Below, one piece after another: positions 8,858 to 26,911 of a stretch of 64,000 nt of DNA. Both the position numbers and the translations under genes were made by a program. Numbering within the stretch: position 1 is the first letter of the stretch; the number at the start of each line of letters is the position of its first letter. A model generated the notes under the pieces. That model ran no database searches. It had not been told where the DNA came from and saw only the letters and a program-made list of their open reading frames with translations. The stretch comes from an uncultured delta proteobacterium. GTDB lineage: Bacteria > Desulfobacterota > Desulfobacteria > Desulfobacterales > B30-G6. The DNA lies in the NCBI GenBank assembly GCA_963823335.1, contig CAWGLD010000001.1:1088001-1152000 (forward strand), given 5' to 3'.

Positions 8858-9122
8858 TAGCACCTCTTTTTTAATTGAAGAATCTCGCGGCCTCGACAAA
8901 CCGGAATTTTCGACAAGTTTCGGTGATAGCGCTCACTGTTGCAGTTCGGGTGTTTTTATTTTTATCCGAATAGGCTATGATCAAATACGTTAGGTATTTA
9001 TTCGGAATCCATGATTGGAGCATATCGCAAAAAAGAGAATATTTGGAATGGCTACCCATGTCAAACAGTTTACTGCTCATCCTTTGATCAATTATACACA
9101 TGGGTAGTGAGAGAATTTCATT

Positions 9123-10958
9123 ATGGGCATCTACGGCAAGATACTGAATGTCGACCTGACAGAAAAGCGACATTTTTTTTCACCTCTTCAGGACCTGACA
9201 TTAAAAACTTCCATCGGCGGAAGAGGGTTCAACGTGGCCTATCTGTATGACCGTTTTTCAGAGGAGATCGATCCTCTTGGAAAAGACAACTGTTTGCTCT
9301 TCAGTTGTGGTCTTCTCACCGGGACCGCCGCCCCGGCATCTTCACGTCTGCATATCAATGCCGTCTCACCCCTGACCGGTCTTTTGGGGAGTTCGAACAT
9401 CGGAGGCCAGGCCGGCGCATGGCTGCGGTCCTGCGGCCTGCAAAGCATCATTGTCCGAGGCCGATCAGACAATCTTGTATACCTGTATATTGAAGATGCT
9501 CGTGCAGAAATCCGCGATGCCCGCTTTTTAAAAGGTCTTGATACCTTTGAGACTCAGGAAAGAATCAAGGATGTCCTGGGAAACCGTCACCTGACCTGCC
9601 TGGTCATTGGTCCTGCAGGGGAAAACTTGGCCAGGTTCGCCTGTATCATATCCGGCAGGGATCACGCAGCCGGAAGGACCGGTATGGGTGCTGTCATGGG
9701 GTCAAAAAACCTCAAGGCCATTGTATTGGCAAAAGGGGGTAAAAGGAAGTTCCCGGTAAAAACATCCCTGGCCAGGGAGGCTGTCAAGCTATATGCCAAA
9801 AAGATCAAAGCCTCTCCAGACTTTAAAACCTTTGCGCAATATGGTGGCGCCGGATATGTGAAATGGGCCGACGACATGGGTATCATGCCCGCACGTAACT
9901 ATCGGGAAAATCGCTTTTCTCAGGTGGACAGCATCGATGGAAAACATCTGGACGTATTCAAACTCAAATCCAGCGGGTGCTACAATTGTCCGGTTCAGTG
10001 CAAAGCGATTCTCAGCTTTGACCGGAAAAAAAAACCTGAGAAAACAGCAACCCGGCCAGAGTTCGAACCCATGCTGAATATCGGTGCCAAATGTGGTCTG
10101 AATGATCTTGAGGCCATCGTTTATCTCGACAATCTTTGTTCAAAATTCGGCATCGATTCCACGTCAGCCGCCGCCACCATGGCGTTTGCCATGGATCTCT
10201 ATGGTCGCGGTATTTTGACCCGGAAAGACACCCATGGTCTGGACCTGACCTGGGGCAATGCCCATGTGATGGAAACCCTCATAACCCAAATGGCGTTTGC
10301 AGAAGGTTTTGGCGCGCTTCTCTCGAAAGGCGTCAGACAGGCCGCCAGGGTTATCGGTAAAGGTGCTGATCAATACGCCGCCCATGTCAAGGGGCTGGAG
10401 CTGTCTGCATATCACCCGGGAAGTATCATGGGTACGGCCCTGGGATACGCTGTTTCCAGTCGTGGTGGTGATTATAACAATGTGTATGCCTCCCTTGAAT
10501 ACCGCTGGTCCAAGGAGCAGGCCACCAGACATTTCGGTAGTCCGGAAGCCGTTGACATGCAGGCCACCCGCGGTAAGGGAAAGCTGATTCGCCGGGCCGT
10601 TCTGGTGAATATCGTTCTTGATTCCCTGGGGATATGCAAGGTGCCGGCCCTAAGTATGATCGGGACCTTCGACCTAAAAAGTGAAGCGACCCTTGCCAGT
10701 TCCCTGTTGAATCTTCCCGTTACAGCCGACGAACTCTTTGCAGTTGGAGATCGTATCGCAAGTCTGGAAAGGGGATTCAACCTGAGACAGGCGCCCGGTA
10801 TGGCCGGGGATACCCTGCCGTCCATGTTTATGGATCAACCCGGTTCTAATCTGAACCAGGAGACACTCGACGAAATGATAGGTGATTATTACACGGCCAT
10901 GGGCTGGGATAAAAATGGAAACCCGGACCCAGACTTACTGAAAGGCACAGGTAAATGA
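9123..10958 (+). CDS. Aldehyde:ferredoxin oxidoreductase (W-pterin family)
   Basis: IGPAGENL, AAGRTGMGAVMGSKNLKAI, CYNCPVQC, HVKGLEL, DSLGIC, YYTAMGWD. Confidence 0.92.
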   Translation: MGIYGKILNVDLTEKRHFFSPLQDLTLKTSIGGRGFNVAYLYDRFSEEIDPLGKDNCLLFSCGLLTGTAAPASSRLHINAVSPLTGLLGSSNIGGQAGAWLRSCGLQSIIVRGRSDNLVYLYIEDARAEIRDARFLKGLDTFETQERIKDVLGNRHLTCLVIGPAGENLARFACIISGRDHAAGRTGMGAVMGSKNLKAIVLAKGGKRKFPVKTSLAREAVKLYAKKIKASPDFKTFAQYGGAGYVKWADDMGIMPARNYRENRFSQVDSIDGKHLDVFKLKSSGCYNCPVQCKAILSFDRKKKPEKTATRPEFEPMLNIGAKCGLNDLEAIVYLDNLCSKFGIDSTSAAATMAFAMDLYGRGILTRKDTHGLDLTWGNAHVMETLITQMAFAEGFGALLSKGVRQAARVIGKGADQYAAHVKGLELSAYHPGSIMGTALGYAVSSRGGDYNNVYASLEYRWSKEQATRHFGSPEAVDMQATRGKGKLIRRAVLVNIVLDSLGICKVPALSMIGTFDLKSEATLASSLLNLPVTADELFAVGDRIASLERGFNLRQAPGMAGDTLPSMFMDQPGSNLNQETLDEMIGDYYTAMGWDKNGNPDPDLLKGTGK

Positions 10959-12403
10959 CCGATATGGGAAATGGATTCAAACCCGAATTAAGAGTGTTGT
11001 CTCTGGAAGATAAAGAGAAAATTTTCAATGCTGCCTTACAGGTATTGGAAGGTGTGGGTATGCAGTTGTTCCATGACGAGGCTCTTGCTCTCATGGAAAG
11101 GGCCGGCAGTGTTGTGACAGGCAAGCAAACCGTCAAGATACCCCGAAAACAGGTGCTAAAAGCCATTGCTTCCGCACCGGAGAATATCCCCGTCTACAAC
11201 CGCGAGGGGGAACACGTAATGGATCTGGGCGGGCGAAGGGCCTATTTCGGTACCGGCTCCGACCTGATGTACGCTTACGACGCGGATAAAGGGGAACGTC
11301 ATTTGACCGGTCTGCCCGACATTGAGCGTGCGGCACGGGTGTGTGATGCCCTGCCGAATATCGATTTTATCATGTCTTTTGCACATCCCCAGGAACTGCA
11401 CCCCGACGCAGCCTATCTGGAGAGCTTTCAATGCATGGCGTTAAATTCCGTCAAGCCCATCGTGAATACAGCCAAGGACCGAGGCGATCTGTCCGCCATG
11501 TGGGAAATCAGCAAAATATTGCGGGGCAGCGAGGCGGATTGCCGTCAGAAACCCTACACCATCCAGTATGCAGAACCCATCAGTCCCCTCAAGCATCCCT
11601 ATGCGAGTATTGACAAACTTATTTTCTGTGCGGAAAAAGGCATGCCGGTCATCTACTCACCCGCTCCCATTGCCGGATCGACGGCGCCCATGACCATTGC
11701 CGGCCATGTTGTCCAGGGGTTGGCGGAATGTCTATTCGGGCTTGTCATACACCAGTTGATCACCGAAGGCGCACCGTTCCTGATGGGTATCGGCACCGCC
11801 GTGCTGGACATGAGCACGAGCCAGTGTTCCTACAATGCACCGGAATACCTGATGGCCTACCTGGCAACGGTTGAAATGAGTCACCATCTCAACTTGCCGA
11901 ACTGGGGCTATGCCGGAACCAGTGATGCGCAGATACCGGATGGCCAGGCAACCTTCGAGGCCGGCTTGATGTCTTATCTATCACTTGTTGCAGGATCGAA
12001 CCTGAACCATGATGTGGGGTATCTCGATTTTGGGCTGACCGGGTCTCTCGAAATGGTGGTCATCATGGACGAGGTAATCGATCAGATTCGCAGGATGCAA
12101 CAGGGAATACCCGTAAACGAGGAGACTCTGGCTGTACAGGTTATCGAGGAAGGCGCCCGCCGGGGCGAGTTTTTGTCCCACCCACACACCTTGACCCATT
12201 TGCGCAGCACCCAATGGCGACCCCAGCTCATGAACCGCATGGGGCATGATCAGTGGGATCTATCCGGCAGGAAAGATCTTCTGTTACGGGCCCGGGAAGT
12301 GTTGAAAAAAATCATGGATACGCATCAGGCAAGATCCGTCTCCAAGGACCAGGTCGTTCAGATTCAGGCCTGTATGGATCGGTTTCATAAAAATGTTCTA
12401 TAA
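10955..12403 (+). CDS. MttB-family corrinoid methyltransferase, non-pyrrolysine
   Basis: EPISPLKH, GSTAPMTIAG, AGTSDAQIPDGQA, NLNHDVGYLD; no in-frame TAG; ATGA overlap with AOR stop. Confidence 0.9.
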   Translation: MTDMGNGFKPELRVLSLEDKEKIFNAALQVLEGVGMQLFHDEALALMERAGSVVTGKQTVKIPRKQVLKAIASAPENIPVYNREGEHVMDLGGRRAYFGTGSDLMYAYDADKGERHLTGLPDIERAARVCDALPNIDFIMSFAHPQELHPDAAYLESFQCMALNSVKPIVNTAKDRGDLSAMWEISKILRGSEADCRQKPYTIQYAEPISPLKHPYASIDKLIFCAEKGMPVIYSPAPIAGSTAPMTIAGHVVQGLAECLFGLVIHQLITEGAPFLMGIGTAVLDMSTSQCSYNAPEYLMAYLATVEMSHHLNLPNWGYAGTSDAQIPDGQATFEAGLMSYLSLVAGSNLNHDVGYLDFGLTGSLEMVVIMDEVIDQIRRMQQGIPVNEETLAVQVIEEGARRGEFLSHPHTLTHLRSTQWRPQLMNRMGHDQWDLSGRKDLLLRAREVLKKIMDTHQARSVSKDQVVQIQACMDRFHKNVL

Positions 12404-12482
12404 AAGGTGTTTTGCCGGGAGCAAATAAAAAGTAACCGTCGGGAGAAGGAAATCGGCTTCTGTTGACGGAGGGGCTTCTGTT

Positions 12483-12662
12483 TTATTCTGTTTGTTTCAG
12501 TTTCTCGATCTGTATCAGAAGGGCGTCATACGCATCCTCGAGTGTCAAAAGATCCATCATTACCGGTGGTTTCACGGAGTGAGCCGGTAGTCGTTTTTTT
12601 GTTTCGGTGATTTCTTCATCCAATTCTCGAAGTCTTTTTTTAAGCGTTTCCAATCGGTTCAT
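12483..12662 (-). CDS. Small coiled-coil hypothetical protein
   Basis: GGAGG RBS before ATG 12662; helical sequence containing RLPAHSVKP; follows the FadR gene on the same strand. Confidence 0.6.
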   Translation of the reverse strand: MNRLETLKKRLRELDEEITETKKRLPAHSVKPPVMMDLLTLEDAYDALLIQIEKLKQTE

Positions 12663-12707
12663 GCGTCCTCCAGACAGCAAACTCTCCAATAAAATCGTAC
12701 AACAATT

Positions 12708-13421
12708 TTACTTTTGGATAAGGTGATGCCATACATTGTCGAACATCTCCTGAGATGCTTTGTAGGCGGCCTCGGGGTCTTTTTGATCAATACCATTCAC
12801 GATGGCGACATGAAACGGCAGGGACTCTTTCTGAACGCCGATATCCGCCGTGTCGCTTTCTCTGGCTTTGTGCACCGCATTTCGGACCGTACTGCCTATT
12901 TGGGATAAAAGATCATTGTGACTTGCCCTGAGAATTTTTGAATGAAAGAGGATATCCAGGGACAGGTAGTCATCATACACATATCGATTTCCGTCACTTA
13001 ATATGGTCTGCATTTGCGACAGGGTGCCCCTGATGTCCGCCACTTCAGAACGCGTGGCCCTGCGGGCAGCCTGGCGGGCGGCCTCGGACTCGATCATTCG
13101 GCGCACCTCGGTGACATCTTTTAAAAACGTGGTCTTGTCTTCGATCTGCAGTCGCCAGACCAGGACATCCGGATCAAACAGATTCCAGTTTTCACGCGGC
13201 AGCACCTGGGTGCCCACCCGGGGACGGGTTTGGATCAGTCCTTTCTGCGTCAATACTTTGATGGCTTCGCGCAGAACACCGCGGCTTACGTGCAATTCCC
13301 CGCTCAGCTGATCTTCGGTGGGCAGCACTTCTTGTATACGATACTTTCCCCTGATAATCCGCTGGCCGATTTCATCGACAATATATTGATAAAGTTTGCG
13401 GTGGTAGGTGTTGGCATGCAT
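12708..13421 (-). CDS. GntR/FadR-family transcriptional regulator
   Basis: wHTH LPTEDQLSGELHVSRGVLREAIKVL; FCD-like C-terminus (DILFH, ASHN). Confidence 0.92.
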   Translation of the reverse strand: MHANTYHRKLYQYIVDEIGQRIIRGKYRIQEVLPTEDQLSGELHVSRGVLREAIKVLTQKGLIQTRPRVGTQVLPRENWNLFDPDVLVWRLQIEDKTTFLKDVTEVRRMIESEAARQAARRATRSEVADIRGTLSQMQTILSDGNRYVYDDYLSLDILFHSKILRASHNDLLSQIGSTVRNAVHKARESDTADIGVQKESLPFHVAIVNGIDQKDPEAAYKASQEMFDNVWHHLIQK

Positions 13422-13432
13422 GTTGTCACTCC

Positions 13433-13616
13433 ATAATTATATAATCATTGAATGATTATATCTTAAGTCATGTCGGACGTCAACTCAACCCCGACAGGGC
13501 ACAGTCATCGCGGGTCAACACCTAATAAAATAATTATATCAGTTAATTAATTGACAAAACAACCCTGTGGCGTAAAGGAAAAAGACTTGACATCAAAAAT
13601 ATAATTATATAATCAT
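13433..13616. promoter_or_regulatory. Divergent control region with two copies of the near-palindrome ATAATTATATAATCAT (13433-13448, 13601-13616); candidate FadR operators
   Basis: Exact 16-bp repeat seen directly; second copy follows TTGACA (13587-13592) and contains TATAAT. Confidence 0.65.
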
Positions 13617-13681
13617 ACTACAAATAAAGCATATTTAAAGGGGTGCAAGATGGTTTATAAAATTCTGAAAGGGAGGCGGAG

Positions 13682-14878
13682 ATGTCTTTAAAATACATTG
13701 CACTGGAAGAGCAATATGGTGCGCACAACTACAAGCCCCTGGATGTCGTTCTCAGCAGAGGAGAAGGTGTCTGGGTTTGGGATGCGGATGGAAACCGCTA
13801 TATGGATTGCCTGTCTGCCTATTCCGCGGTAAATCAAGGTCACTGCCACAAGAAAATTTTGCAGACACTCATGGATCAGGCACAGAAACTGACCTTGACA
13901 TCAAGGGCCTTTCGCAACGATCAACTCGGTCCCTTTTATAAAGAGTTGTGTGAACTGACCCGCTCTCACAAAGCCCTGCCCATGAACAGCGGGGCTGAGG
14001 CCGTCGAAACCGCCATTAAAACAGTACGCAAATGGGGGTATACGGTCAAGGGTGTTCCGGAAAACGAGGCCGAGATCGTTGTGTGTGAAAACAATTTTCA
14101 TGGCAGAACCATATCCATCGTCAGTTTCAGCACAGACCCACATGCACGCAAAGGATTCGGCCCTTTTACACCGGGCTTCAAGGTAATCCCCTATGGTGAT
14201 GCTGCTGCACTTGAGGCAGCCATTACACCAAAAACCGTGGCGTTTCTTGTGGAACCGATTCAGGGGGAGGCTGGTGTCATTATTCCCCCTGAGGGGTATC
14301 TCAAAAAAATCAGGAAGATATGTACCCAGGAGAACGTCATGCTTATTCTGGATGAGATTCAGACAGGATTGGGTCGTACGGGTAAGCTTCTAGCCGAAGA
14401 ACACGAAGGAATTGAAGCGGACCTGACCCTCATCGGCAAAGCGTTGTCAGGCGGTTTTTATCCGGTATCGGCTGTCCTGTCGAATTCAGAGGTCATGAAT
14501 GTCCTGCAACCCGGTGAGCACGGCTCGACATTTGGTGGCAACCCCCTGGCATGTGCTGTGGCGCGAACAGCCCTGAAGGTGCTAATTGACGAGGGTATGA
14601 TCGAAAATGCAGAAAAAATGGGTGCTGTCTTTTTAAACGGATTAAAACAGATCGCCAATCCCCTGATTAAAGATATTCGGGGGAAAGGCCTGATGCTCGC
14701 CGTGGAGTTTTACCCCAAAGCCGGTGGCGCTCGTCAATACTGTTTAAAGCTCAAAGAAAAAGGATTGCTCTGCAAAGAGACCCATCAAGACACGATCCGT
14801 TTTGCGCCGCCACTGATTATCACCCAATCGGAGGTTGAATGGGCTTTGGATATAATTGCCAACGTTGTCACTGCATAA
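13682..14878 (+). CDS. rocD: Ornithine aminotransferase
   Basis: [59 protein letters not shown]. Confidence 0.93.
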
Positions 14879-14948
14879 ACCGTCAACGAACAAGCGACAC
14901 CGTCGCGGATTATAAAATCGGTCCAACGATTTTATGGAGGAAACAGAA

Positions 14949-16265
14949 ATGGTGGAAAATGTTATTATCATGGGCGCTGCCGGTCGGGATTTTCATAATT
15001 TTAACGTCTATTTCAGAGATAATCCGAGGTACAATGTCATCTGTTTTACCGCCACGCAGATTCCTGACATCGATGGGCGCCAGTACCCTTCCCAGCTTGC
15101 CGGGTCCATGTATCCCCATGGGATTCCCATAAGAAGTGATGAGCGATTGATGGAAATGATCAAAGAGGACAAGATCGACCTGGTAGCCTTTTCATACAGT
15201 GATGTCCCCCACACGGAGGTGATGCACAAAGCTTCTCAGGCCATCGCCGCCGGGGCAGATTTTATCATCATCGGCGCATCCTATACCATGATCCCCTCCA
15301 CGAAAAAGGTTGTTTCGGTTTGTGCCATACGGACCGGCTGCGGGAAATCCCAGACCAGCAGACAAATCGTACAGGTTCTCAAAGACGCGGGGGAGAAAGT
15401 CGTTTCCGTTCGTCATCCCATGCCTTACGGGGATTTGACCAAGCAGATTGTTCAGCGCTTTGCCACCTATGAAGATTTTGCGAAACATGCCTGCACCATT
15501 GAAGAACGCGAAGAATATGAACCGGTGGTTGATATGGGGGCCATCATATATGCAGGCGTGGACTACGAGAAAATACTCCGTCTGGCCGAACAGGAAGCGG
15601 ACATTATCGTTTGGGACGGCGGTAACAATGATACACCGTTTTACAAACCGGATGTGCATGTGGTGGTTTTCGACCCGCACCGTGTTGGTCATGAAACAAC
15701 GTTCCATCCCGGCGAAGCAAACATGCTGCTGGCCGATATCGCTGTCATCAACAAGGTGGACAGTGCCGATCCTAAGGATGTGGAAACGCTGAAGAAGACT
15801 ATCGCACGGCACAACCCCAATGCCCGAATTGTTTTAGCCGATTCAGAAGTAAGCGCTGATAACGGAGAAAGCATGCTGGGCAAACGTGTTCTGGTCATTG
15901 AGGATGGACCGACCCTTACGCATGGGAATATGACATTCGGTGCCGGTGTCATTGCAGCGCAGCGTTACGGGGCGGCAGAGATGGTGGATCCACGGCCGTA
16001 CCTGGTGGGATCTCTCAGGCAAACCTTCCAGACCTATCCGGAAATCGGTAAGGTGCTTCCGGCCATGGGATATGGCGACCAACAGGTGAAAGACCTGGAG
16101 GCGACCATTGATGCATGTGCGTGTGATATGGTTGTTTCGGCCACGCCCATAGATCTGACACGACTGGTGAAAATCAAGAAACCGATCCTCCGGGTCCGCT
16201 ATAACTACCGGGACAACAGCGTACCCACCCTGGGTGAACTTGTCATAGAAATGCTCAATTGTTAA
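14949..16265 (+). CDS. Cyclic-2,3-DPG-synthetase-like P-loop protein; probable arginine synthetase (ArcE-like)
   Basis: IIMGAAGRDFHNFN, FTATQIPDI, RTGCGKSQ, RHPMPYG, CTIEEREEYE, WDGGNND, EDGPTLTHG; lies between rocD and carbamate kinase. Confidence 0.75.
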   Translation: MVENVIIMGAAGRDFHNFNVYFRDNPRYNVICFTATQIPDIDGRQYPSQLAGSMYPHGIPIRSDERLMEMIKEDKIDLVAFSYSDVPHTEVMHKASQAIAAGADFIIIGASYTMIPSTKKVVSVCAIRTGCGKSQTSRQIVQVLKDAGEKVVSVRHPMPYGDLTKQIVQRFATYEDFAKHACTIEEREEYEPVVDMGAIIYAGVDYEKILRLAEQEADIIVWDGGNNDTPFYKPDVHVVVFDPHRVGHETTFHPGEANMLLADIAVINKVDSADPKDVETLKKTIARHNPNARIVLADSEVSADNGESMLGKRVLVIEDGPTLTHGNMTFGAGVIAAQRYGAAEMVDPRPYLVGSLRQTFQTYPEIGKVLPAMGYGDQQVKDLEATIDACACDMVVSATPIDLTRLVKIKKPILRVRYNYRDNSVPTLGELVIEMLNC

Positions 16266-16345
16266 AACACTGTCCCCAAACCGCCCATGCTTTGGCGGGC
16301 GGTCTATCGGAAAATATTTCTTTTTATTGATGAGATAGGAGGGGC

Positions 16346-17296
16346 ATGATGAATCATGACAGCATTGCTCCAGTAAAACCTACTTTGGTGATTGCCCTGG
16401 GGGGAAATGCGCTGATCCGGAAAGGGCAGCAGGGGACGATTTCAGAACAATTCGAGAATCTCAGAATTCCCATTGGCCAGATTGCAGGACTTGTCCATGA
16501 ATATAACATCATCATCACCCATGGCAACGGTCCACAGGTAGGGAATCTGATGCTGCAGCAGGAATCCTGTTTTGCAGTGCCTAAACTGCCCCTGGAAATA
16601 CTTGTGGCCCAGACCCAGGGACAGATCGGGTATATGATCGAATCGGTTCTGGACGAAGCGCTCATGGAACAGGGTGCGGATTTTCACCCCCTTGTTTCGT
16701 TGATCACCTACGTGGTTGTGGACAGAAAAGACCCTGCATTTGTCCATCCCACAAAACCTATCGGACCATGCTTTACAGCGGCCGAAGCCGAAAAACTGCC
16801 ATATCCCACCACCCAGACACCCAAGGGATTTCGACGTGTTGTGGCATCGCCCAATCCCGTAACCATCATTGAAAAAAGAGAAATCAAGCGATTAATAAAT
16901 GCCGGGTTCCTTGTTATCTGCTGTGGCGGCGGCGGCATTCCCGTGGTTCGAAACGGACGGGCTTTCAATGGTGTAGATGCTGTTATCGACAAGGACCTTG
17001 CCAGTTCTCTTCTGGCCATGGAAGTCGGCGCTGAACTGCTGGTGATCGCCACGGATGTGGATGGTGTTTTGGCTGACTTTGGTACGGATAAGGAAAAGCT
17101 GATACAACGTCTTTCAGTAAAAGAGGCCAGAGCGTTTTTAAACCATGACCATACCGGCAAGGGGTCCATGGAACCCAAGGTGGCGGCGGCTGTTCAATTT
17201 TTGGAACAAGGTGGCAAGCGTGTCGTTATCACCTGTCTTGATGCGATTGTCACGGGGGTCAAGGGAACGGCAGGCACTCAGATTGTTTGTGGATGA
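16346..17296 (+). CDS. arcC: Carbamate kinase
   Basis: IALGGNAL, THGNGPQVG, PTKPIGP, RRVVASP, GGGGIPV, AVIDKD, GSMEPKV. Confidence 0.93.
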   Translation: MMNHDSIAPVKPTLVIALGGNALIRKGQQGTISEQFENLRIPIGQIAGLVHEYNIIITHGNGPQVGNLMLQQESCFAVPKLPLEILVAQTQGQIGYMIESVLDEALMEQGADFHPLVSLITYVVVDRKDPAFVHPTKPIGPCFTAAEAEKLPYPTTQTPKGFRRVVASPNPVTIIEKREIKRLINAGFLVICCGGGGIPVVRNGRAFNGVDAVIDKDLASSLLAMEVGAELLVIATDVDGVLADFGTDKEKLIQRLSVKEARAFLNHDHTGKGSMEPKVAAAVQFLEQGGKRVVITCLDAIVTGVKGTAGTQIVCG

Positions 17297-17342
17297 AGGT
17301 CTTCTATCATGACGGAAAATGATGAATCGATAAGCTGCAAGC

Positions 17343-18290
17343 TTATGGCTCATTGAGCTTCCGGGTCAAGGCCGGGAGAATGGTAAACAGATCGCCAATG
17401 ACATAATAGTCGCTGTGGGCCAGGATGGCGGCTTTTGCATCGGTATTGATGGCGATGATCAAGCCGGCTGTTTTCATGCCGGCCAGATGCTGGATAGAGC
17501 CGGAAATACCACAGGCGATATAAACCTTGGGGTTGACCTTGGTACCAGTCTGGCCCACCTGCATGGCATAGGGTACCCAACCCTCGTCCACTGCAACCCG
17601 AGAAGCACCCACTGCGGCGTCTTCGATAGACTCGGCACACTCAAAGAGAAAATTGAAATTTTCCCCATTTATCATACCGCGCCCACCGGAAACGATTACA
17701 TGCGCTTCCGACAGATTCTGAGCCCCCGGTTTTCCCGGAATCACTTCCAGAACACGCAATTTTATCTCTTCCGGGATATCTATGACCTGTTGCGTGATGT
17801 GAGGTGTTGTCGGGTGAACAACGGCGGCAATGGCATTGGGTCGCATGCCATATAGGATCCGTTCCCCGGTCAGGTGAAAGGTGGCCATGGTTTTGCCCGA
17901 ATACTGGGATGTTTTTGCCACCTGGCGGTCGATATCCACATGAACGCAGTCCATCACCAGGGGCGCATCGAGGATAGCGGCAATTCGCGGCAGGAGATCT
18001 TTTCCCTGGGCAGAGGTTATTCCCATGAGTATATGGATGTCCAGGGTCTCAAGAACCGTGACAACGGCCTGAGCCCAGCGCGCGGGGTTCCAGTCGGGTC
18101 GATTCATCACAACGTTCACGATATGATCGACCCCATACCGGGCCAGTTGTTGCTGAATGTCTGATGTCACTGCTTCCATCAGGACAGCGAAAATCTCGTG
18201 CCCTTCCTTTACGGCGGCAGTAATCATTCCCAGATTTGCCGGTTTTAGGGCTCCCTCTTTTAGCTCGATGAGTAGACCGATTTTTTTCAT
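17343..18290 (-). CDS. etfA: Electron transfer flavoprotein alpha subunit
   Basis: VSGGRG, VGASRVAVD, QVGQTG, GISGSIQH, AINTD. Confidence 0.93.
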   Translation of the reverse strand: MKKIGLLIELKEGALKPANLGMITAAVKEGHEIFAVLMEAVTSDIQQQLARYGVDHIVNVVMNRPDWNPARWAQAVVTVLETLDIHILMGITSAQGKDLLPRIAAILDAPLVMDCVHVDIDRQVAKTSQYSGKTMATFHLTGERILYGMRPNAIAAVVHPTTPHITQQVIDIPEEIKLRVLEVIPGKPGAQNLSEAHVIVSGGRGMINGENFNFLFECAESIEDAAVGASRVAVDEGWVPYAMQVGQTGTKVNPKVYIACGISGSIQHLAGMKTAGLIIAINTDAKAAILAHSDYYVIGDLFTILPALTRKLNEP

Positions 18291-18373
18291 ACTTTTTTTA
18301 TCTTTTGCCCTGTTTTAAAACGAACACCCACCGACCTCCGTGATCAGTGTCACTTGAACTCTCGCTCCCTTCC

Positions 18374-19141
18374 TTATATCACCCGGGCCTCCTCCTTAAG
18401 AATGGTGACGAGCTGTTCTGCAATGGATGTGGTTGTGCCGGTTATCTCTTTGGGCTTTCGTTTCTCCTGTGCCGGTGTAAGGCGCACCAGCTCTACGCGG
18501 CCGGCCGGTTCCGGAATGCCGAGTGTTTTGAAATCGATGGTTTTGATTTCTTTTTTGCGCGATGTGACAATATCTGGAAAGGTCGGGTACCTGGGGGTAT
18601 TGAGGCCCTTGCCGGCGGCCAGAACGCAAGGCATTTCCAGTTTCAGTATCTCACGGACGCCGGCCTCTTTTTCACAGGTTGCCAGGGCAGCATTCTCTGC
18701 AGTTTCGATCTTAACGACATTGGTTGCTGCCGGCATGTCAAAGAGATGTGCCAGTCGAAACATGGTCTGCATGCCCTCCCTGTCGATGGATTCTTTCCCC
18801 GTGAGGATGAGATCGGGTTGACCGTCCCGGGCGATAGCCGTCTTCAAGATTCTGGCGGTCATGATGGGGTCATGGTCATTTTCGGCGGTTATCAGGATGC
18901 CGCGGTCGGCTCCCATGGCCAGGGCCGATCTCAGGGTGCCTTCGGCCTCGGGTTTGGAAAAGCAGACGGCGATCACCTCCGACCCGGGAAAGTGCTCACT
19001 CAACCGACGCGCTTCGGTCACTGCATGTTCGTCATAGGGATTCATGAGAAAGGTGATTCCTTCTTCGATCCCGGTTTCTCCCTTGACAGTGATGGTGGCG
19101 GCTGAATCGGGGACGTGCTTGACGCAGACGTAAATCTTCAT
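18374..19141 (-). CDS. etfB: Electron transfer flavoprotein beta subunit
   Basis: MKIYVCVKHVPD, NPYDEHA, ALAMGADR, GKESID, NTPRYP. Confidence 0.93.
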   Translation of the reverse strand: MKIYVCVKHVPDSAATITVKGETGIEEGITFLMNPYDEHAVTEARRLSEHFPGSEVIAVCFSKPEAEGTLRSALAMGADRGILITAENDHDPIMTARILKTAIARDGQPDLILTGKESIDREGMQTMFRLAHLFDMPAATNVVKIETAENAALATCEKEAGVREILKLEMPCVLAAGKGLNTPRYPTFPDIVTSRKKEIKTIDFKTLGIPEPAGRVELVRLTPAQEKRKPKEITGTTTSIAEQLVTILKEEARVI

Positions 19142-19145
19142 CAAT

Positions 19146-20483
19146 CTAACCGTTGACGGAGAAACTGGAATTGTAATTGATTTCTCGTTTGCGCGAGTAA
19201 AAACCGACATCCATTTTGCGACCGGTGTATTTCATGGTGAATTGAAACGGCTCTTTATCGTGATCCAGGCCTTTTTCACAGGCATCGATGAGTTCTGCCA
19301 TCATGGCACCCACCACGGGGGCATTCTTGTACTGGTTACCGCTGGTGCCGATGGCCATATAAAAACCGCCCAGATCGGATTTGTCGTAAACCGGAATCCA
19401 GTCATCGGAGCAATCGTAGAGATCCACAACCCCTTTGGGCTGGTTGGGTACCTGCAGGGTGGGGATGCGGCGGCCCAGACGATAGCACTGGGCTTTCCAC
19501 TGTTCCTCGCTGAGCTGGTTGTTGCGGCCATGGCCTCCTTTTCCAGCATAGAATTCGTCCGGGTCAACCCATTCCTGGGGATCGCAGTCCGGGTCTTCGG
19601 AGCCGATGAGGAACATGTTGCCGGTTTCCGGACGAATGTAACAACCAATATCACCATCACTCTGGTGATAACCGGTATTGATATAATCATAGTCCTCAGG
19701 TGATGGGCAGTACATGACTTCGTGGCGCAGGGCCTTGGTTTTGATGTTGCAGCCTTCCCAGACACCCTCGGCCATCTGATTGATTTTGTATGAATGAGGT
19801 CCGGCACAATTGACAACAACAGGAGCATCGATCAGGGTCCCGTCTGCCAGGGTGATACCCTGAACTTTTCCATGGGCACTTCGGATCGCAGTAACTTCGG
19901 CATTGAAAAGGAATTCGGCGCCTTTGGCCTCGGCGGCACGCATGATATTGTGAGCTGAAAGGGCGGGATCATTTACATAACCGCCTTCCGGGCAGAAAAG
20001 CCCCCCTTCGAGTTCTTTTTCGGGTTCGTCAAAGAAGGTGGGATCTTCGGGTCGTCGCACCGGCCAGAACTCGTGCAGGTCCAGTACGGGGACGTGTTCA
20101 AGAATCTTTTGGTTGTCCCATTCCTCGTATTTTACACCTACAGCGTCATAATGTTTTTTGACTTCCTGCCATTTATGACCCTGGGACTTAAGAAGAATGG
20201 ATCCGGTGTTCATGTACCTGGCTAAGCCTTTTTCATCCTCCACATGATCCAGATAATTTTGCCAGTCCAGCCAGTATTTGAAGCCTTCATAGGCAAAAGC
20301 AACACCATCTTCGGTAGAGTAATGGGCTCTTACGATAGCGCAGGACCCAGCTGTCGAACCCTCACCAGCATCAGGCAGCTTGTCAACACTCAGGGTTTTA
20401 TATCCCTTTTTTGTCAGTTCGTATGCGATGGGAGCCCCGATGACTCCGACTCCGATGATAATGGCGTCAAAATTTTTGTTCAT
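19146..20483 (-). CDS. FAD-dependent amine oxidoreductase (SoxB/DAO family)
   Basis: IIGVGVIG, GSTAGSCAIVR, NCAGP, GTSGNQYKNAP; stop lies 4 nt before etfB start. Confidence 0.85.
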   Translation of the reverse strand: MNKNFDAIIIGVGVIGAPIAYELTKKGYKTLSVDKLPDAGEGSTAGSCAIVRAHYSTEDGVAFAYEGFKYWLDWQNYLDHVEDEKGLARYMNTGSILLKSQGHKWQEVKKHYDAVGVKYEEWDNQKILEHVPVLDLHEFWPVRRPEDPTFFDEPEKELEGGLFCPEGGYVNDPALSAHNIMRAAEAKGAEFLFNAEVTAIRSAHGKVQGITLADGTLIDAPVVVNCAGPHSYKINQMAEGVWEGCNIKTKALRHEVMYCPSPEDYDYINTGYHQSDGDIGCYIRPETGNMFLIGSEDPDCDPQEWVDPDEFYAGKGGHGRNNQLSEEQWKAQCYRLGRRIPTLQVPNQPKGVVDLYDCSDDWIPVYDKSDLGGFYMAIGTSGNQYKNAPVVGAMMAELIDACEKGLDHDKEPFQFTMKYTGRKMDVGFYSRKREINYNSSFSVNG

Positions 20484-20569
20484 GATCTCCTCCTGTGCAG
20501 ATTGATTCTATATGATATTAAAAGAGAATAAACATAAAAGAAAGTTTATGCAAAGGCATTATTTATCAA

Positions 20570-21220
20570 TTACATTGTCTGGTCTTGAACCGCCTGAACC
20601 CAGTTGGCAAACCGTTTTTCACCGGCCGGGCAAAGGCCAAACTCTTGGCCGGAATCGAGTACGGCATGGGTCATGCTGTCAGCATATCCACGGCTACAGG
20701 TCAGCAGAAACCCGCCGGACATATCTTCATTTTTCTCCAGAATTACGATTTGGCACGGGACATGGCACAAAGGACCCTGCAGCAGAAATGGAGCGGTTCT
20801 GGCGGGATCGGTTAAGTCAAGCGCCGTCAATTTTTCAGCTACATGGAATGTATCCGGGCCAAAAAGGGCCAGAAAGACCGTTGCTTCGGTGACATCCGTG
20901 CAGCCTTTGAAGTCCGGTAATATCATTTCCCGTTTCCCCAGATGCCAGATGGCAGCCTGGGTTCCATTCATACGATTGACCAGGATATCTTTATTAAAAG
21001 CGCATGTTCCCGGGTCAGCCGGCACGGTGATCCCGCTGGGTGAGAGATCATCGATCTGACTGTCCTGCAGGTCCCAGCGTGTTTTGTGACTCAGGTCCAC
21101 CAACCAGGGGCCGGGGCCTTCCTCATGGTAGGCCAAAACAACCTCCCAGTTGTCACGGATTTCAGAATTTTTTACGCTGGATTCAAACGTCACCGGTGAA
21201 TATCTTTGTATACCTGTCAT
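20570..21220 (-). CDS. Sarcosine oxidase gamma subunit-like
   Basis: LVDLSH, GPDTFHVAEKLTALDL, CSRGYA; position after the alpha subunit. Confidence 0.75.
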   Translation of the reverse strand: MTGIQRYSPVTFESSVKNSEIRDNWEVVLAYHEEGPGPWLVDLSHKTRWDLQDSQIDDLSPSGITVPADPGTCAFNKDILVNRMNGTQAAIWHLGKREMILPDFKGCTDVTEATVFLALFGPDTFHVAEKLTALDLTDPARTAPFLLQGPLCHVPCQIVILEKNEDMSGGFLLTCSRGYADSMTHAVLDSGQEFGLCPAGEKRFANWVQAVQDQTM

Positions 21221-21230
21221 TTCTCTTTCC

Positions 21231-24146
21231 TCACATTTTCATGCGTTCGCCTTCAGGGTCATAAAAGGGCATGGGAACCACCCTGGCGTTCAACCGTTTT
21301 TCGTTGCATTCATCTTCATAAATTTGCAGTCGTGAGCCCGGTTTGCTGAGTTGGGATTCCACCAGGGCCATGCCCACGGCTTCTCCGGTGGTAAAGCTTT
21401 TTCGGGCCGTAGCCACGTATCCGCGAACGCGGGTGTCTACGATCAAGGCCCCGTCCCGGGGTGCCCGGGTATCGTCTTCCATACGTATGCCCACCAATTT
21501 GAACCGGCCGGGGTCGTTTTCGGCCTGACGGAGGGCCACAGAGCCGACAGTTTTGGCATCTGCTTTTTTTCGATCCCAGAGGAATCCCAGGCCCAGGTCC
21601 AGGAGGTTGGTCCGTTGCTCTGACTCCTGCCCGAGAATAATGTGGCCTTTTTCCATACGCAGCACATTCTGGGCTTCCAGGCCAAAATTCTGGATATTAA
21701 ATTCAGCGCCAGCGGCCATCAGCATGTCCCAGACAGATTGCATGTAAGAGGCGGGCACATGAAGTTCATATGATAATTCGCCCACAAAACCCAGACGCAT
21801 GGCGCGTACCGGAATCGTGTTTTTAATAGTGAACTCACAGTATCCGGCATAAGGGAAGGCTTTGTTGGATATGTCGGCATCCACTATTTTTGTTAAAACC
21901 TTGCGGGCATTGGGTCCGGAAACGTTGATCACACCCATGGCATCGGTGAGGTTGACCATGTGGTATTTCCACCCATCGTAGCGCGTGTGAAATCGGAACC
22001 ACTCCACGGTATTACCGGCCCGTCCGCTGGATGTCGTGATGTAGTAGTCATTATCACCCCGTTTAATCACGATTCCGTCATCGATAACACAGCCGTCATC
22101 ATTGCACATGGCGGAATATTTGATACGGCCTGTTTTGATGCGGCTCATGTCAGACACATAAAGACGTTGAAGGGCCTTGAGTGCATCCGGACCGAAAATT
22201 CGAAATTTTCCCAGGGTAGAACTGTCCAGCATGCCCACGTTATTGCGTACATTGAGAATTTCATTCTTGCATTCGAAATCCTGGGAAAAGTACCGAGCTC
22301 TCTGCCAAACACCAATGTTGCGGAAGATACCGCCCTCTTTTTTCTGGGACACATGTAAAGGAGTTCGTTTGAACATATGATGGTGGGCACCTGCATAGGT
22401 TGCCAGAAGCGTGGGCACCAGCGGTGGCCGCACGGTTGTGGGCATAGGCTTGGAAACAGCGGCCGTGTATTTAGACACATAGAGTGGCAGATTATGACCC
22501 GGAATGCCCCCCTGACCCGGTCCGGTGCCTGCCGAGGTAAATCGCTTGATCAGCTCTGGGACATCAAAGCCCATATCGATGGCCTGCTTGATATTTTTGA
22601 TGGTGGTGTCCTCGTCAAAGCAGATAAAACTTTTCCGTCCTTTTACCGGGGCTGTGACCAGTTTGCAGCCCCGGTCTGCTCCGGGCAGTAGATCTGCTGC
22701 CTTTTGAGCGCTGGAGACTGTATCATCATCGGCCAGGCCTATGACGGCTAATGCCTTTTTAGCGGCCAATCGGCCTGAAGCCTCAATAGATAGCGGATGA
22801 TTGCATCCGGTCATTCGGCCTGCTGAAAACATCTTTTCAGGTAGTTTCTGGGGCAGGAAATATCCGGTGTGGTTGTCATAGGTCATTTTGGCCTGAGCCA
22901 GAATCAAGGGACCATTCACAGGTGTGTGCCCGGCTGACGCTACCAGCAGGTCGCAGGGGATTTGACGCCTGATGGTTCCGTCCAGCGTGCTCAGGGTCAC
23001 CTTGGTTACCTTTTTGCAGCCATAAGTTTTGGCGGCAACCCAGCCCTTGAGTACCGGCACCTTTCTTTGAGCGAGTGCCTCAAGCAGGCTGTCGTCATGG
23101 CCATCCTCGCGGATATCGGCCACGGTTTGGATCTTAAGACCCAGGTCAAACAAATCAAGTGCAGCCTCGAGCCCCAGGTCATGACCTACGCTGAAAACAG
23201 CTTCTTTACCGGGCAGAAGACCATAGCTTCGAGCCAGGCGATGGGCGCAGGCCACCTGCATGACGCCGGGTCTTTCGTTGTTCTCAAAAACCAGGGGTCG
23301 CTCGATACAACCGGTGGCGACCACCACGCTTTTGGAACGGATTTCGATATAGCGCTCCGTAAAGGCATCGTCACGCTTGCCCACCTGAAAGGCCGTGATT
23401 AGATTGTTGTTGTAAGCGCCCACCATGGAGGTATGTTTAAACACCCGGAGATTGGGAGCATTTTCCACCTGTTTCGCCAATTCTCTGGACCGGGTGAAAA
23501 GCGGTGTGCTTTCATTGTACGCGGCCGTCCGGTAATCCCAGCTTCCGCCCAGGTATGGTCGCGATTCCAATAGAACAACCCGAACGCCCGCTTCCGCAGC
23601 AGTCAGGGCTGCCATCATACCGGCAGCACCACCGCCGATAACACACACATCGGCTGTCAGGAAGATTTCATCATAGCGGCCTTTTACCTCGTAATTGGCG
23701 GAGATGGTTCCCACGCCTGCGGCTTTACGGATAGCTTTCATGGCAACGGGCCAGATCGCTGCCGGCTTGTGCATGGTCTTGTAATAGAAACCAGCCGGCA
23801 TCATCCAGTCTAATTTATCGGTAAATGCCATCAAGTCAAATTCCGCCGAGCCCTTGACGTTCTGGGCCTTGACCACCATTCCGTCTTTAAGCAGTGTGTT
23901 TTCAGTTCTCACATTGGGCACGCCATCCACTTCCATACAGGTGTTGCTGGATTCACCGTCAAGGCTGTACAACCCCCTGGGGCGATGATATTTCAGGCTG
24001 CGCGAAAAAATCCGGATACCATTGGAATAAAGAGCAGTTGCAACCGTATCTCCGGAAAATCCCTGATATGATTTTCCCCGATAGGCCAGAGAACGTGTTT
24101 CACCGGTATCGATCCGCAGCGTTGGCAATTCATGAAGCCTGTTCAT
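21231..24146 (-). CDS. soxA: Sarcosine oxidase alpha subunit-like (NAD-binding plus GcvT folate-binding)
   Basis: GDTVATAL, SRSLKYHRPRG, IGGGAAG, NNERPG, KRFTSAGTGPGQG, GELSYEL, LRMEKG, PFYDPEG. Confidence 0.85.
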   Translation of the reverse strand: MNRLHELPTLRIDTGETRSLAYRGKSYQGFSGDTVATALYSNGIRIFSRSLKYHRPRGLYSLDGESSNTCMEVDGVPNVRTENTLLKDGMVVKAQNVKGSAEFDLMAFTDKLDWMMPAGFYYKTMHKPAAIWPVAMKAIRKAAGVGTISANYEVKGRYDEIFLTADVCVIGGGAAGMMAALTAAEAGVRVVLLESRPYLGGSWDYRTAAYNESTPLFTRSRELAKQVENAPNLRVFKHTSMVGAYNNNLITAFQVGKRDDAFTERYIEIRSKSVVVATGCIERPLVFENNERPGVMQVACAHRLARSYGLLPGKEAVFSVGHDLGLEAALDLFDLGLKIQTVADIREDGHDDSLLEALAQRKVPVLKGWVAAKTYGCKKVTKVTLSTLDGTIRRQIPCDLLVASAGHTPVNGPLILAQAKMTYDNHTGYFLPQKLPEKMFSAGRMTGCNHPLSIEASGRLAAKKALAVIGLADDDTVSSAQKAADLLPGADRGCKLVTAPVKGRKSFICFDEDTTIKNIKQAIDMGFDVPELIKRFTSAGTGPGQGGIPGHNLPLYVSKYTAAVSKPMPTTVRPPLVPTLLATYAGAHHHMFKRTPLHVSQKKEGGIFRNIGVWQRARYFSQDFECKNEILNVRNNVGMLDSSTLGKFRIFGPDALKALQRLYVSDMSRIKTGRIKYSAMCNDDGCVIDDGIVIKRGDNDYYITTSSGRAGNTVEWFRFHTRYDGWKYHMVNLTDAMGVINVSGPNARKVLTKIVDADISNKAFPYAGYCEFTIKNTIPVRAMRLGFVGELSYELHVPASYMQSVWDMLMAAGAEFNIQNFGLEAQNVLRMEKGHIILGQESEQRTNLLDLGLGFLWDRKKADAKTVGSVALRQAENDPGRFKLVGIRMEDDTRAPRDGALIVDTRVRGYVATARKSFTTGEAVGMALVESQLSKPGSRLQIYEDECNEKRLNARVVPMPFYDPEGERMKM

Positions 24147-24403
24147 TTGCTATCCTCCGGTGCGCTTACTTCAAGGTTGCTGATGGTGTTACGAAAGGTG
24201 CTGAACCATGATCCGCATCCATCCCGGTGAAACCACCACTCTTTCTGAACACCTGCTATACAGGTGTTCATGTGGACATAATCGCACCATTCAGCAGGTG
24301 TCAGGCCGTCTTCATCTGGTCGGGGTCCTTTATCTTCTCCACCATAGCGAAATTCATACCCATTGCGTTTCCCGCAGATGGGACAGGTGAGAGTCAGTGC
24401 CAT
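24143..24403 (-). CDS. soxD: Sarcosine oxidase delta subunit
   Basis: CPICGKR..EF.YGG, EWWFHRDGC, RNT. Confidence 0.88.
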   Translation of the reverse strand: MALTLTCPICGKRNGYEFRYGGEDKGPRPDEDGLTPAEWCDYVHMNTCIAGVQKEWWFHRDGCGSWFSTFRNTISNLEVSAPEDSK

Positions 24404-24427
24404 TGTTTTCCTCCTGTTATATTGCGG

Positions 24428-25651
24428 CTAATTGTCAGGCGTATAACTCACCAGCGCCGCTGTTTCACCCATGAGCTGGTGTTTTTCATAACGTCGCAGG
24501 TTAAACGGTTTAAGCATATCGGGGCAGTTCTCCGTCGCCAGGTACTGGGCCATGTATTTTCCGGCGGCGGAACAGGATTTAAATCCAAAATACCCCCAGC
24601 CACAGTCCATGTAAAAACCCTCGATGGGATCATTGCCATCCAGAATTGGTGCCATGTCCGGGGTCATGTCGGCCAGACCACCCCAGATCCGCATGAACCT
24701 GACGCCCCGCAGGCAGGGCAGCCAGTCCGACAGGGCTTCAGCCTGATGCTTGATGTAGTGTGCTGTGTTTTGGGTTGTGTAATTGGGCCATGGATCCATG
24801 TGAGCACCGGTGGCAATTTCACCTTTAAGTGTCTGGTTGGCATAGCAGTGATAGGCACCGGAAGAAACCACGTGGTTGAGCAGTGGTTTCAGCGGTTGGG
24901 TGACCATGGCCTGGATGGTCAATACACTGATGGGAAGTCTGATACCCAGCATCTGGTTGATGACGCCTGCGCTGTAACCACCGGCGGATACCAGCACCCT
25001 GGGGGTATTAATGTGACCGCGGCTGGTGGTGACACCGGTGACTTTACCTCCCTGCGTGTGAATGGCTGAGGCCTCTGTCCGCTGGTGGATGTGAACCCCA
25101 TTTTTTGCACAGCCCTTGGCCAGACCCCACACAACCGCGTCATGGCGAACAATACCTCCGGGGGGATGATACATGGCGCCTTGTATGGGAAAGGTAATAT
25201 CTTCTGAAATGTTCAGTGCCGGTACCATCTCTTTGGCCTGTTTGGCATCGATGAGGTGACTCTCTACACCGTGGAACTGCGCCGTTGCGATGGTCATGCG
25301 GGCGGCCTTCATGGCGGCTTCACTGTGCATCAGATTCAGGTTCCCGCAATTGTTGAACATTAAATTGAAATCGAGCTCTTTCGTAAGTACCGGCCAGAGG
25401 TCGAGTGCCTCTTTGTAGAGGGGGACATTATACTGTGTCCGCTGGTTAGCACGCACGATGGCGGTGTTTCTCCCGGCCCCGCCAAACCCAATGTATCTTT
25501 TTTCAATAATGGCCACATCGGTGAGACCATAATCCCTGGCCAGATAGTAGGCTGTGGCAAGACCATGAAGCCCACCCCCTATGATCACCGCTTCGTAACT
25601 GGATTTCAGTTTGGGCTGTTTTCCCCACAGGGGTTTATGTTTAGAAAACAT
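24428..25651 (-). CDS. soxB: Sarcosine oxidase beta subunit
   Basis: IGGGLHGLATAYYLA, GRNTAIVRAN, GIVRHDAVVWG, WGGLADMTPD, GWGYFGFK. Confidence 0.88.
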   Translation of the reverse strand: MFSKHKPLWGKQPKLKSSYEAVIIGGGLHGLATAYYLARDYGLTDVAIIEKRYIGFGGAGRNTAIVRANQRTQYNVPLYKEALDLWPVLTKELDFNLMFNNCGNLNLMHSEAAMKAARMTIATAQFHGVESHLIDAKQAKEMVPALNISEDITFPIQGAMYHPPGGIVRHDAVVWGLAKGCAKNGVHIHQRTEASAIHTQGGKVTGVTTSRGHINTPRVLVSAGGYSAGVINQMLGIRLPISVLTIQAMVTQPLKPLLNHVVSSGAYHCYANQTLKGEIATGAHMDPWPNYTTQNTAHYIKHQAEALSDWLPCLRGVRFMRIWGGLADMTPDMAPILDGNDPIEGFYMDCGWGYFGFKSCSAAGKYMAQYLATENCPDMLKPFNLRRYEKHQLMGETAALVSYTPDN

Positions 25652-25947
25652 TATCGGTGCTCCTTTTTGGTGTCACGTCATATTGCGATGGGTAGTTACG
25701 GTGCTTCCTAAAAGGGTCATAATATCATTTGTCAAATAACGTTCGGTTTACTCCGAAAAGTGAAACCCCTGGCGTCGTGAAACGCATTCGGAACCTAGTT
25801 ATGACAAGCCCTATAGCACTATGCCAATGTAAGAAAACATGTCAAGCAAAAAAGAAAGTATGTCTTTGATTATTTCAAAATCAATTGACATCTTTTGTTG
25901 GTTATGGTTATTTTCTATTATATCTTTATGGTTATGGGCTTTAATGC

Positions 25948-25969
25948 AAATGAAAGAAATGTTTCATTT
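25948..25969. promoter_or_regulatory. Palindrome AAATGAAA-N6-TTTCATTT, candidate RpiR-family operator
   Basis: Perfect 8-bp arms 20 nt upstream of the RpiR start, downstream of TTGACA at 25885-25890. Confidence 0.5.
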
Positions 25970-25989
25970 ATGTGCCTGGGAAATAATTT

Positions 25990-26877
25990 ATGAAAGAAAA
26001 TCAGTCGCACCCAGTTATTAAGCAAATTATGATGAATCTGGCCTCCTTGACACCCAAGGGGCGAATTCTCGGAAAATATATCATACAGTATCCGCGCAAA
26101 GCGGTGTTCATGACCACGAGGGAACTAGCCGAAACCTGTGATGTCAGTGAAGCGACGGTGGTCAGATTTGTCAGTCAGCTGGGATATGGCGCCTATGGGG
26201 AATTTCTCCAAGCCTTGCGGGATTTCGTCGACACCGGGTTGACCCTGCAGGATCGGGTCGATCTCCCGGGTATGAAAGAACCGGGAGCCGACCGATTTCA
26301 CCGGGTCGTGTTTGATGAGATGAGCAATTTAAAGCAGTTCTACGAAGCCATCGACATGAATACCATGCAGATCTTCCTGGAAGCCATTTCGGAAAGTCCC
26401 TGGGTTTATGTTGTCGGATCCCGTCTTTCCTATACCTTTGCCTATTACTTGGGCTGGTCTCTGACCAAGGTGCGCAAGGGGGTGCATATTTTGAATGGCA
26501 GCGACAGCACAGCCATCGACTGGCTTACCAATGCCCCTGCCGACAGCCTGATCGTGATGATCGCTACATCACGGTATCCCAATGAATTGATCAAACTGGG
26601 TAAAGTGGCACGGCGCCTGGGGCATCGACTTCTGGTTATCGCAGACAGCACCCTTTGTCCCCTGATTCAATTTGCGCACACATCTTTGGTTGCCCCATCA
26701 AAATCGATTCCCCTGATCGGCAATCCAAGCACAATTACCTGTATAGCAAACTATCTAGTGCTGGAACTGGCCAGTCGCCAGGACAACCGTTTTAGTTTAC
26801 ATCAGGAAAAGCTGGAACAGGTTTATCTGGAGAATGATATTCTGTTTAATCTGCGTATGGAAGATTTTGACCAATAG
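25990..26877 (+). CDS. MurR/RpiR-family transcriptional regulator
   Basis: ELAETCDVSEATVVRFVSQLGY HTH plus SIS-type domain. Confidence 0.92.
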   Translation: MKENQSHPVIKQIMMNLASLTPKGRILGKYIIQYPRKAVFMTTRELAETCDVSEATVVRFVSQLGYGAYGEFLQALRDFVDTGLTLQDRVDLPGMKEPGADRFHRVVFDEMSNLKQFYEAIDMNTMQIFLEAISESPWVYVVGSRLSYTFAYYLGWSLTKVRKGVHILNGSDSTAIDWLTNAPADSLIVMIATSRYPNELIKLGKVARRLGHRLLVIADSTLCPLIQFAHTSLVAPSKSIPLIGNPSTITCIANYLVLELASRQDNRFSLHQEKLEQVYLENDILFNLRMEDFDQ

Positions 26878-26911
26878 ATATCCTCAACAGGTAGCAATGG
26901 AAGGAGTTATC

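Follow-up and report, generated by a model that had tools for sequence, protein, structure and literature searches.

What is the function of an operon in which an ornithine aminotransferase and a carbamate kinase flank a protein known in public databases as a 'predicted GTPase'? The question is raised by a stretch of 64,000 nt of assembly GCA_963823335.1 (contig CAWGLD010000001.1, positions 1,088,001-1,152,000, equivalent to C1:1088001-1152000; the whole stretch is called the window below), where the open reading frame (ORF) listing places rocD, a P-loop protein gene and a carbamate kinase gene head to tail on the plus strand. This row had been described in the original prediction and is borne out by the ORFs and the family scans. 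We put the probability that the operon constitutes a catabolic arginine synthetase pathway at about 85%, and it is a new example of a published pathway, not a new pathway. The middle protein, ArcE, would convert arginine, ADP and phosphate into citrulline, ATP and ammonia, the single and unlinked ornithine carbamoyltransferase (OTC, argF) would split citrulline by phosphorolysis into ornithine and carbamoyl phosphate, carbamate kinase would gain a second ATP from the carbamoyl phosphate, and RocD should carry ornithine on to glutamate semialdehyde / pyrroline-5-carboxylate. The first of these reactions might proceed through a phosphorylated ureido (isourea) intermediate, a suggestion made by analogy with dethiobiotin synthetase and cobyrinic acid a,c-diamide synthase and not taken from PMC11032458. 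The basis for the reading is the gene identities, the family of the middle protein by sequence and fold, the conserved context and the genome content, and the family membership, fold, context and genome content likewise support the earlier proposal of an ArcE-type arginine synthetase that works with an OTC encoded elsewhere.

The first gene, rocD (13682..14878, +, 398 aa), has GGGAGG before its ATG and encodes an ornithine--oxo-acid aminotransferase that passes the TIGR01885 equivalog cut-off with 571.4 bits against 378.4. The last gene, arcC (16346..17296, +, 316 aa), encodes a carbamate kinase that passes the curated NCBIfam cut-off of NF009007 (310.7 bits, cut-off 266) and is slightly below the cut-off of TIGR00746 (351.7 bits against 358.25). 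The frame between them extends from 14934 to 16265 and gives 443 aa from the ATG at 14934, but the ATG at 14949, giving a predicted arcE-type arginine synthetase of 438 aa (14949..16265, +), is the likelier start because GGAGG at 14937-14941 is located 7 nt 5' of it and most of the close ArcE homologues have a length of 437-438 aa; the start at 14949 had also been given in the original prediction. The spacers are 55-70 nt between rocD and arcE, and 80 nt between arcE and arcC. A terminator scan gave nothing convincing between the operon genes (2 sites, where shuffled sequence had a mean of 5.6), and no RNA family was found with Rfam at gathering thresholds in window positions 9000-26000. The arcE-arcC spacer (16266-16345) contains a G+C-rich hairpin, CCGCC...GGCGG, followed by a gap and then a T-rich stretch. 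Unflagged by the consensus scan, this element could be an incomplete terminator or a site of processing.

The middle protein contains all three motifs quoted for it earlier, GAAGRDFHNFN at residues 14-24, RTGCGKS at 133-139 and WDGGNND at 227-233. It has no match in NCBIfam, and a borderline and partial match to Pfam cobW of 20.9 bits (cut-off 20.7) over residues 236-300. Homologues are abundant, with 8000 of 8000 scored candidates at E <= 0.001 in a database of 90% clusters, and with 3614 representatives at 50% identity reaching E <= 1e-3 and 628 reaching 1e-30. The best are 75-97% identical, and where a name is given it is 'predicted GTPase', 'GTPase' or, from NCBI, 'cyclic 2,3-diphosphoglycerate synthase', and the clusters obtained from the ESM Atlas are labelled 'putative GTPase' only. 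A scan of species genomes, queried with a 7-sequence alignment, returned 80 named loci with 56-71% identity in many bacterial phyla and in archaea (Thermoplasmata, Bathyarchaeia, Heimdallarchaeota, Aciduliprofundum). Of 201 archaeal genomes sampled around one archaeal match, 106 have a homologue, with 51-60% identity except for three partial matches (56-61%). The names obtained from cluster look-ups for 20 distant representatives include Gaiella, Saccharicrinis, Thermoproteota and Anstonellales, and no Thermococcus was present among the 80 named loci or these 20 look-ups.

Michimori, Yokooji and Atomi (2024) identified TK2200 of Thermococcus kodakarensis as ArcE, with the reaction Arg + ADP + Pi <-> Cit + ATP + NH3 (PMC11032458). 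According to that paper, TK2200 homologues formerly went under the names hypothetical protein or putative GTPase, occur widely in both archaea and bacteria, with genera including Desulfosarcina, Geobacter and Desulfovibrio, are only weakly similar to cyclic 2,3-diphosphoglycerate (cDPG) synthases, which form the outgroup of the tree in SI Fig. S10, are encoded near arcB and/or arcC in some genomes, and have an occurrence complementary to that of arginine deiminase (ADI). The protein of the window fits all of these traits, and by its sequence it is most likely a member of the widespread 'predicted GTPase' family to which these authors gave the name ArcE. The links to the TK2200 family are indirect, namely 84% identity to P0038 from a Desulfosarcina sp. 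metagenome-assembled genome, and 51-61% identity to archaeal members.

An AlphaFold2 model was made from a 22-sequence alignment, with a mean pLDDT of 93.2 and a pTM of 0.92. The first Foldseek match is the cDPG synthetase 8oru, from Methanothermus fervidus (E 1.5e-18, 12% identity), and the third is LpxK 4ehy (E 1.1e-9); in the second-look aligner (VIA) these two give Z 22.3 with an rmsd of 12.0 over 353 aligned residues, and Z 20.1 with an rmsd of 3.1 over 278, respectively. Further down the VIA results are the HypB, UreG, MeaB, ParA-type and SRP GTPase cores, and Foldseek also matches MinD, dethiobiotin synthetase and cobyrinic acid a,c-diamide synthase at E of about 4e-4 to 6e-4. 4EHY, with its ATP-Mg pocket, is the structure that was superimposed on the TK2200 model in PMC11032458, and in the predicted structure the window protein has the LpxK-like P-loop NTPase core that is reported for TK2200.

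The rank of 8oru could be taken as a sign that the middle protein is a cDPG synthetase, since no solved structure is closer to the full length of the model than cDPG synthetase (PDB 8oru, 8ork, 9sxb), and two close homologues, P0038 and P0067, carry that name at NCBI. The identity in the structural alignments is however only 12-16%, and the best sequence match in the PDB, to cDPG synthetase 9sxb (E 1.4e-3), has 20.9 bits and is restricted to residues 212-304, or 93 of 443 residues, so that no characterised cDPG synthetase gives a sequence match over the full length. The gene context is that of arginine and ornithine metabolism, and in PMC11032458 the cDPG synthase homologues are taken as only distantly similar and serve as outgroup. 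The name can therefore be given practically no credence.

A GTPase of the CobW/HypB/UreG kind, with a regulatory or metallochaperone role, would agree with the public name 'predicted GTPase', with the cobW match and with the P-loop cores of HypB and UreG, which match structurally with Z 15-18. The cobW match spans 65 residues only, and neither a full-domain Pfam match nor a conserved NKxD, as in G3E GTPases, was found in the middle protein. In the 22-sequence family alignment the protein keeps 6 invariant and 24 near-invariant columns, and its Walker A motif RTGCGKS is present with G137 and K138 nearly invariant, but in the 'NKVD' stretch only K274 is nearly invariant. The label 'GTPase' is poorly founded because the N and D of this stretch vary. 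The N-terminal and C-terminal extra domains are common to cDPG synthetase and LpxK and are not shared with the G3E GTPases, and the characterised family member uses ADP/ATP, as stated in PMC11032458. A GTPase of this kind is accordingly an extremely improbable identity for the protein, and an arginine synthetase of the ArcE type is preferred.

No arginine deiminase, arginase or OTC is encoded in the 64-kb window, as had been noted before, and the genome (11 contigs, 93.9% complete) agrees with this. There is no match to arcA (TIGR01078) in the 93.9%-complete genome, and the sole arginase-family gene, on contig C6, is an agmatinase. ArcE and carbamate kinase are each encoded once genome-wide; a carbamate kinase with no TIGR01078 match is the combination expected where ArcE replaces arginine deiminase. 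The search for argF/arcB that had been proposed as a check led to one OTC, whose gene (C1:1844607-1845029) has a DnaJ-like gene on one side and a PAS sensor kinase gene on the other and is separated from the operon by about 0.74 Mb. The genes carB (1502.7 bits), argG and argH are found elsewhere in the genome, with carB and argG clustered with argB and pyrB. Arginine biosynthesis should for this reason need neither ArcE nor carbamate kinase, and the catabolic direction is favoured since the biosynthetic set is complete elsewhere and rocD is part of the operon.

The opposite direction, in which carbamate kinase supplies carbamoyl phosphate and arginine is formed by ArcE at a lower cost than carbamoyl phosphate synthetase with ArgG and ArgH, has the reversibility of ArcE in its favour. 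In T. kodakarensis the enzyme sustained the formation of arginine in vivo, and a biosynthetic role was raised for organisms without argG and argH (PMC11032458). The genome of the window has carB as well as argG and argH, and the ornithine-consuming rocD is present in the operon in 18 of 20 related loci, which makes a biosynthetic operon improbable and leaves arginine breakdown as the favoured function.

The only genome match to the ADI superfamily (PF02274) is a 267-aa protein resembling dimethylarginine dimethylaminohydrolase (DDAH) and far from the true deiminases. It has 229-234 bits to the solved dimethylarginine dimethylaminohydrolases 3rhy/1h70, and 254 bits against the NCBIfam DDAH model with a cut-off of 450. 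Its gene is located on contig C9 of the window genome (G000:C9, L155:1258-2061, -), flanked by genes for an FGE-sulfatase-domain protein and a GAF-GGDEF protein. By its similarity the protein could release citrulline and methylamines from methylarginines.

Of 41 genomes of the same order, the window genome counted, 26 encode an ArcE homologue. For 20 of the genes about 15 kb of surrounding DNA was compared, with neighbours found by tblastn with the window proteins and the OTC of the window genome. At these 20 loci arcC is adjacent in 19 and rocD in 18. An OTC gene is inserted between rocD and arcE in five of them (L033, L037, L038, L042 and L043), all from other families of the order, and in none of the 12 loci from the taxonomic family of the window. 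In these five genomes the in-operon OTC is the sole match over the TIGR00658 cut-off, and in four of the five it is 67-70% identical to the OTC of the window genome. These bacteria thus keep a single OTC gene, which some lineages carry within the operon and the lineage of the window at another place. At two of the loci with an in-operon OTC (L037:4694-5494 and L038:4716-5495, from relatives G030 and G025) a carbamoyltransferase paralogue is located directly 3' of arcC. It has 25% identity to OTC, and its 131-134 bits fall short of the cut-off of the OTC model. This protein, which resembles aspartate carbamoyltransferase, is absent from the window. Genome G004 of the same genus has three copies of the operon on three contigs (L026, L027 and L028). 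In two of them the ArcE proteins are identical and the neighbours do not differ, possibly because of a redundant assembly or a mixture of strains (contamination is given as 5%).

At the 80 named loci from many phyla, some of which have short flanks, carbamate kinase is adjacent in 25, OTC in 12 and both in 10, and a rocD match is found in eight, five of them with at least 56% identity. In a maximum-likelihood tree of 98 ArcE rows, from which L071, L086 and L114 were dropped for a stop codon in the matched span, the protein of the window is placed in a clade of 35 Thermodesulfobacteriota rows with an SH-aLRT of 100. In this clade 22 rows have carbamate kinase only, eight have OTC and carbamate kinase, one has OTC only and four have neither. 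There is no long branch in the tree, the ArcE of the window has an ordinary branch within a clade that holds OTC-linked members, and the tree gives no sign of a change of enzyme accompanying the loss of OTC linkage.

The surroundings of the operon raise the question of a different substrate. Upstream, at 9123-12403 (+), an aldehyde:ferredoxin oxidoreductase (AFOR) gene shares 4 nt with the start of an MttB-family methyltransferase gene, which is uninterrupted and stays below the TIGR02369 cut-off (337.7 bits against 525). Downstream and convergent, at 17343-25651 (-), are genes for a SoxB-like protein, a SoxA-like protein of 971 aa, a SoxG-like protein, an FAD oxidoreductase, ETF beta and ETF alpha, with a gap of about 280 nt after the SoxB-like gene, before the SoxA-like gene, that could have room for a SoxD. 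This row has the appearance of a sarcosine-oxidase-type complex with coupling to ETF, in a host that is apparently an anaerobe. A corrinoid protein, a dimethylglycine-dehydrogenase-like fusion (DAO + FAO_M + GCV_T) and two further MttB-family genes are found at 3242-3877 and 26834-32447, and together with the AFOR-MttB and Sox/ETF genes they form an island of the methylated-amine / glycine-betaine type. At 763-3163 (+) the glycine C-acetyltransferase gene kbl (NF005394 680.6 bits) adjoins a gene of the zinc alcohol-dehydrogenase family, an apparent threonine-to-glycine pair in keeping with the glycine-centred character of the region. At the end of the window, 62001-64000, the G+C content drops to 0.424, and a fragment of an RHS / YD-repeat protein is encoded at 63051-63968 (-).

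The original prediction had suggested, from the adjacency of the sarcosine genes, that the substrate could be creatine or another guanidino compound. In its broader form the idea is that ArcE of this genus acts on creatine, guanidinoacetate, agmatine or methylarginines, in a pathway tied to the sarcosine and methylamine neighbours, so that ATP would be gained from creatine or guanidinoacetate with an N-carbamoyl product, or from methylarginines together with the DDAH-like enzyme. The operon has no OTC of its own, and at the loci from the genus of the window it sits between AFOR-MttB and the ETF/DAO/Sox-like operon, which speaks for the idea. These neighbours are however limited to the genus: Sox/ETF/MttB/AFOR neighbours occur at all 8 own-genus loci, with AFOR and MttB both next to the operon in five of the eight, and at none of the 12 other loci, while rocD-arcE-arcC is kept across the order. 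The creatine idea is unsupported because, among the 20 loci of the order, the sarcosine-type neighbours occur in this one genus only. RocD is specific for ornithine, orthologues with 65-72% identity to the window protein have an OTC in the operon, as five of the 20 operons do, and the ordinary branch of the window ArcE among OTC-linked members also speaks against the idea. The invariant and near-invariant columns of the family are kept, as described above, and no creatinase or amidinotransferase family was found among the window ORFs scanned. A recruitment for another guanidino substrate is for these reasons very improbable, also in its more specific forms with creatine, guanidinoacetate or methylarginines; if true, it would be an undescribed energy-conserving route. 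Arginine is the substrate preferred here.

The operon is probably controlled by a GntR/FCD-family transcription regulator (12708..13421, -; Pfam GntR 62.4 bits, FCD 82.1 bits), which is encoded divergently from rocD and which we infer to act through two near-palindromic 16-mers in the intergenic region. The 16-mer ATAATTATATAATCAT has exactly two copies in the window, both between the regulator gene and rocD. The first (13433..13448) is located 12 nt upstream of the start codon of the regulator, and the second (13601-13616) overlaps the second hexamer of a promoter-like sequence TTGACA-18-AATCAT (13587..13616, +). Allowing up to 3 mismatches, five matches were found on both strands of the window against a shuffle mean of 0.55. 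The core ATTATATAAT is present at the same position 5' of rocD in seven of the eight own-genus loci (L025-L031, not L032), and a homologue of the regulator, with 47-91% identity, adjoins the operon in 12 of the 20 related loci (L025-L036). By their sequence the two 16-mers are operator-like, and are regarded as candidate operators.

Parts of the operon were detected in 20 public runs from 13 studies, all of them marine, estuary, sediment or aquatic metagenomes, and seven of the runs are RNA libraries. Contig sets from four estuary metatranscriptomes were mapped onto the operon. The rocD/arcE junction is spanned by the RNA-library contigs X10 14357-15178, X13 14679-15107 and X7 14680-15707, and the arcE/arcC junction by X10 16067-16619, X14 15864-16548 and X7 15983-17400 and beyond. 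The junction-spanning contigs give a weak hint that the operon is expressed. The promoter region 13400-13667 has no cover by RNA-library contigs in three of the four runs, from which no inference is drawn.

Several points weigh against the catabolic arginine synthetase pathway as set out here. The orthology of the window ArcE with TK2200, most likely as it is, was reached by the indirect links described above. Neither OTC nor carbamate kinase is present in the available flanks of 53 of the 80 named loci, some of which are short, so that the support from gene context comes mainly from some lineages. The OTC is about 0.74 Mb away and its use in catabolism is an assumption, in which it would presumably be shared with biosynthesis, and by its sequence the DDAH-like protein could be another source of citrulline, including by a side activity on arginine. 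The RNA-library contigs may reflect DNA carry-over and a contig with two genes is no proof of a single transcript, which keeps the hint of expression weak; one of the contigs extends into the convergent etfA gene. No activity measurement for a bacterial ArcE was found in the accessible parts of the arginine synthetase literature (PMC11032458, PMC13260591). The reaction, its direction, the use of the distant OTC and the regulation are predictions.

The predicted pathway has much in common with that of T. kodakarensis, formed by ArcE (TK2200), ArcB and ArcC. The first enzyme belongs to the same protein family by the indirect links, and has the LpxK-like P-loop core; arcE and arcC are linked, with linkage to arcB in relatives of the window; 2 ATP per arginine are predicted; and a carbamate kinase is present in a genome in which no arginine deiminase was found. 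The host of the window is in contrast bacterial, with named relatives in Desulfobacterales / Thermodesulfobacteriota, and its operon is joined by rocD so that ornithine should continue to glutamate semialdehyde. The OTC of the window genome is single and unlinked, and the candidate regulator is a GntR/FCD protein. The genome furthermore has carB, argG and argH, which are lacking in T. kodakarensis according to PMC11032458. The classical arginine deiminase pathway (arcABC) shares the OTC and carbamate kinase steps and likewise turns arginine into ornithine, CO2 and two NH3 while ATP is gained at substrate level, but the first step of the window pathway is predicted to fall to a P-loop enzyme of unrelated origin, with the energy conserved as ATP, and not to a hydrolytic deiminase, no canonical ADI having been found in the window genome.

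No new question is opened by the operon, because the enzyme, the pathway and its wide distribution in bacteria were already published in 2024. It would be a bacterial case, from relatives of sediment sulfate reducers, of the arginine synthetase pathway yielding two ATP, and it has a variant layout in which rocD is part of the operon and one OTC apparently serves both the synthesis and the breakdown of arginine. For the family as a whole, the findings support a correction of the public labels 'GTPase' and 'cDPG synthase'.

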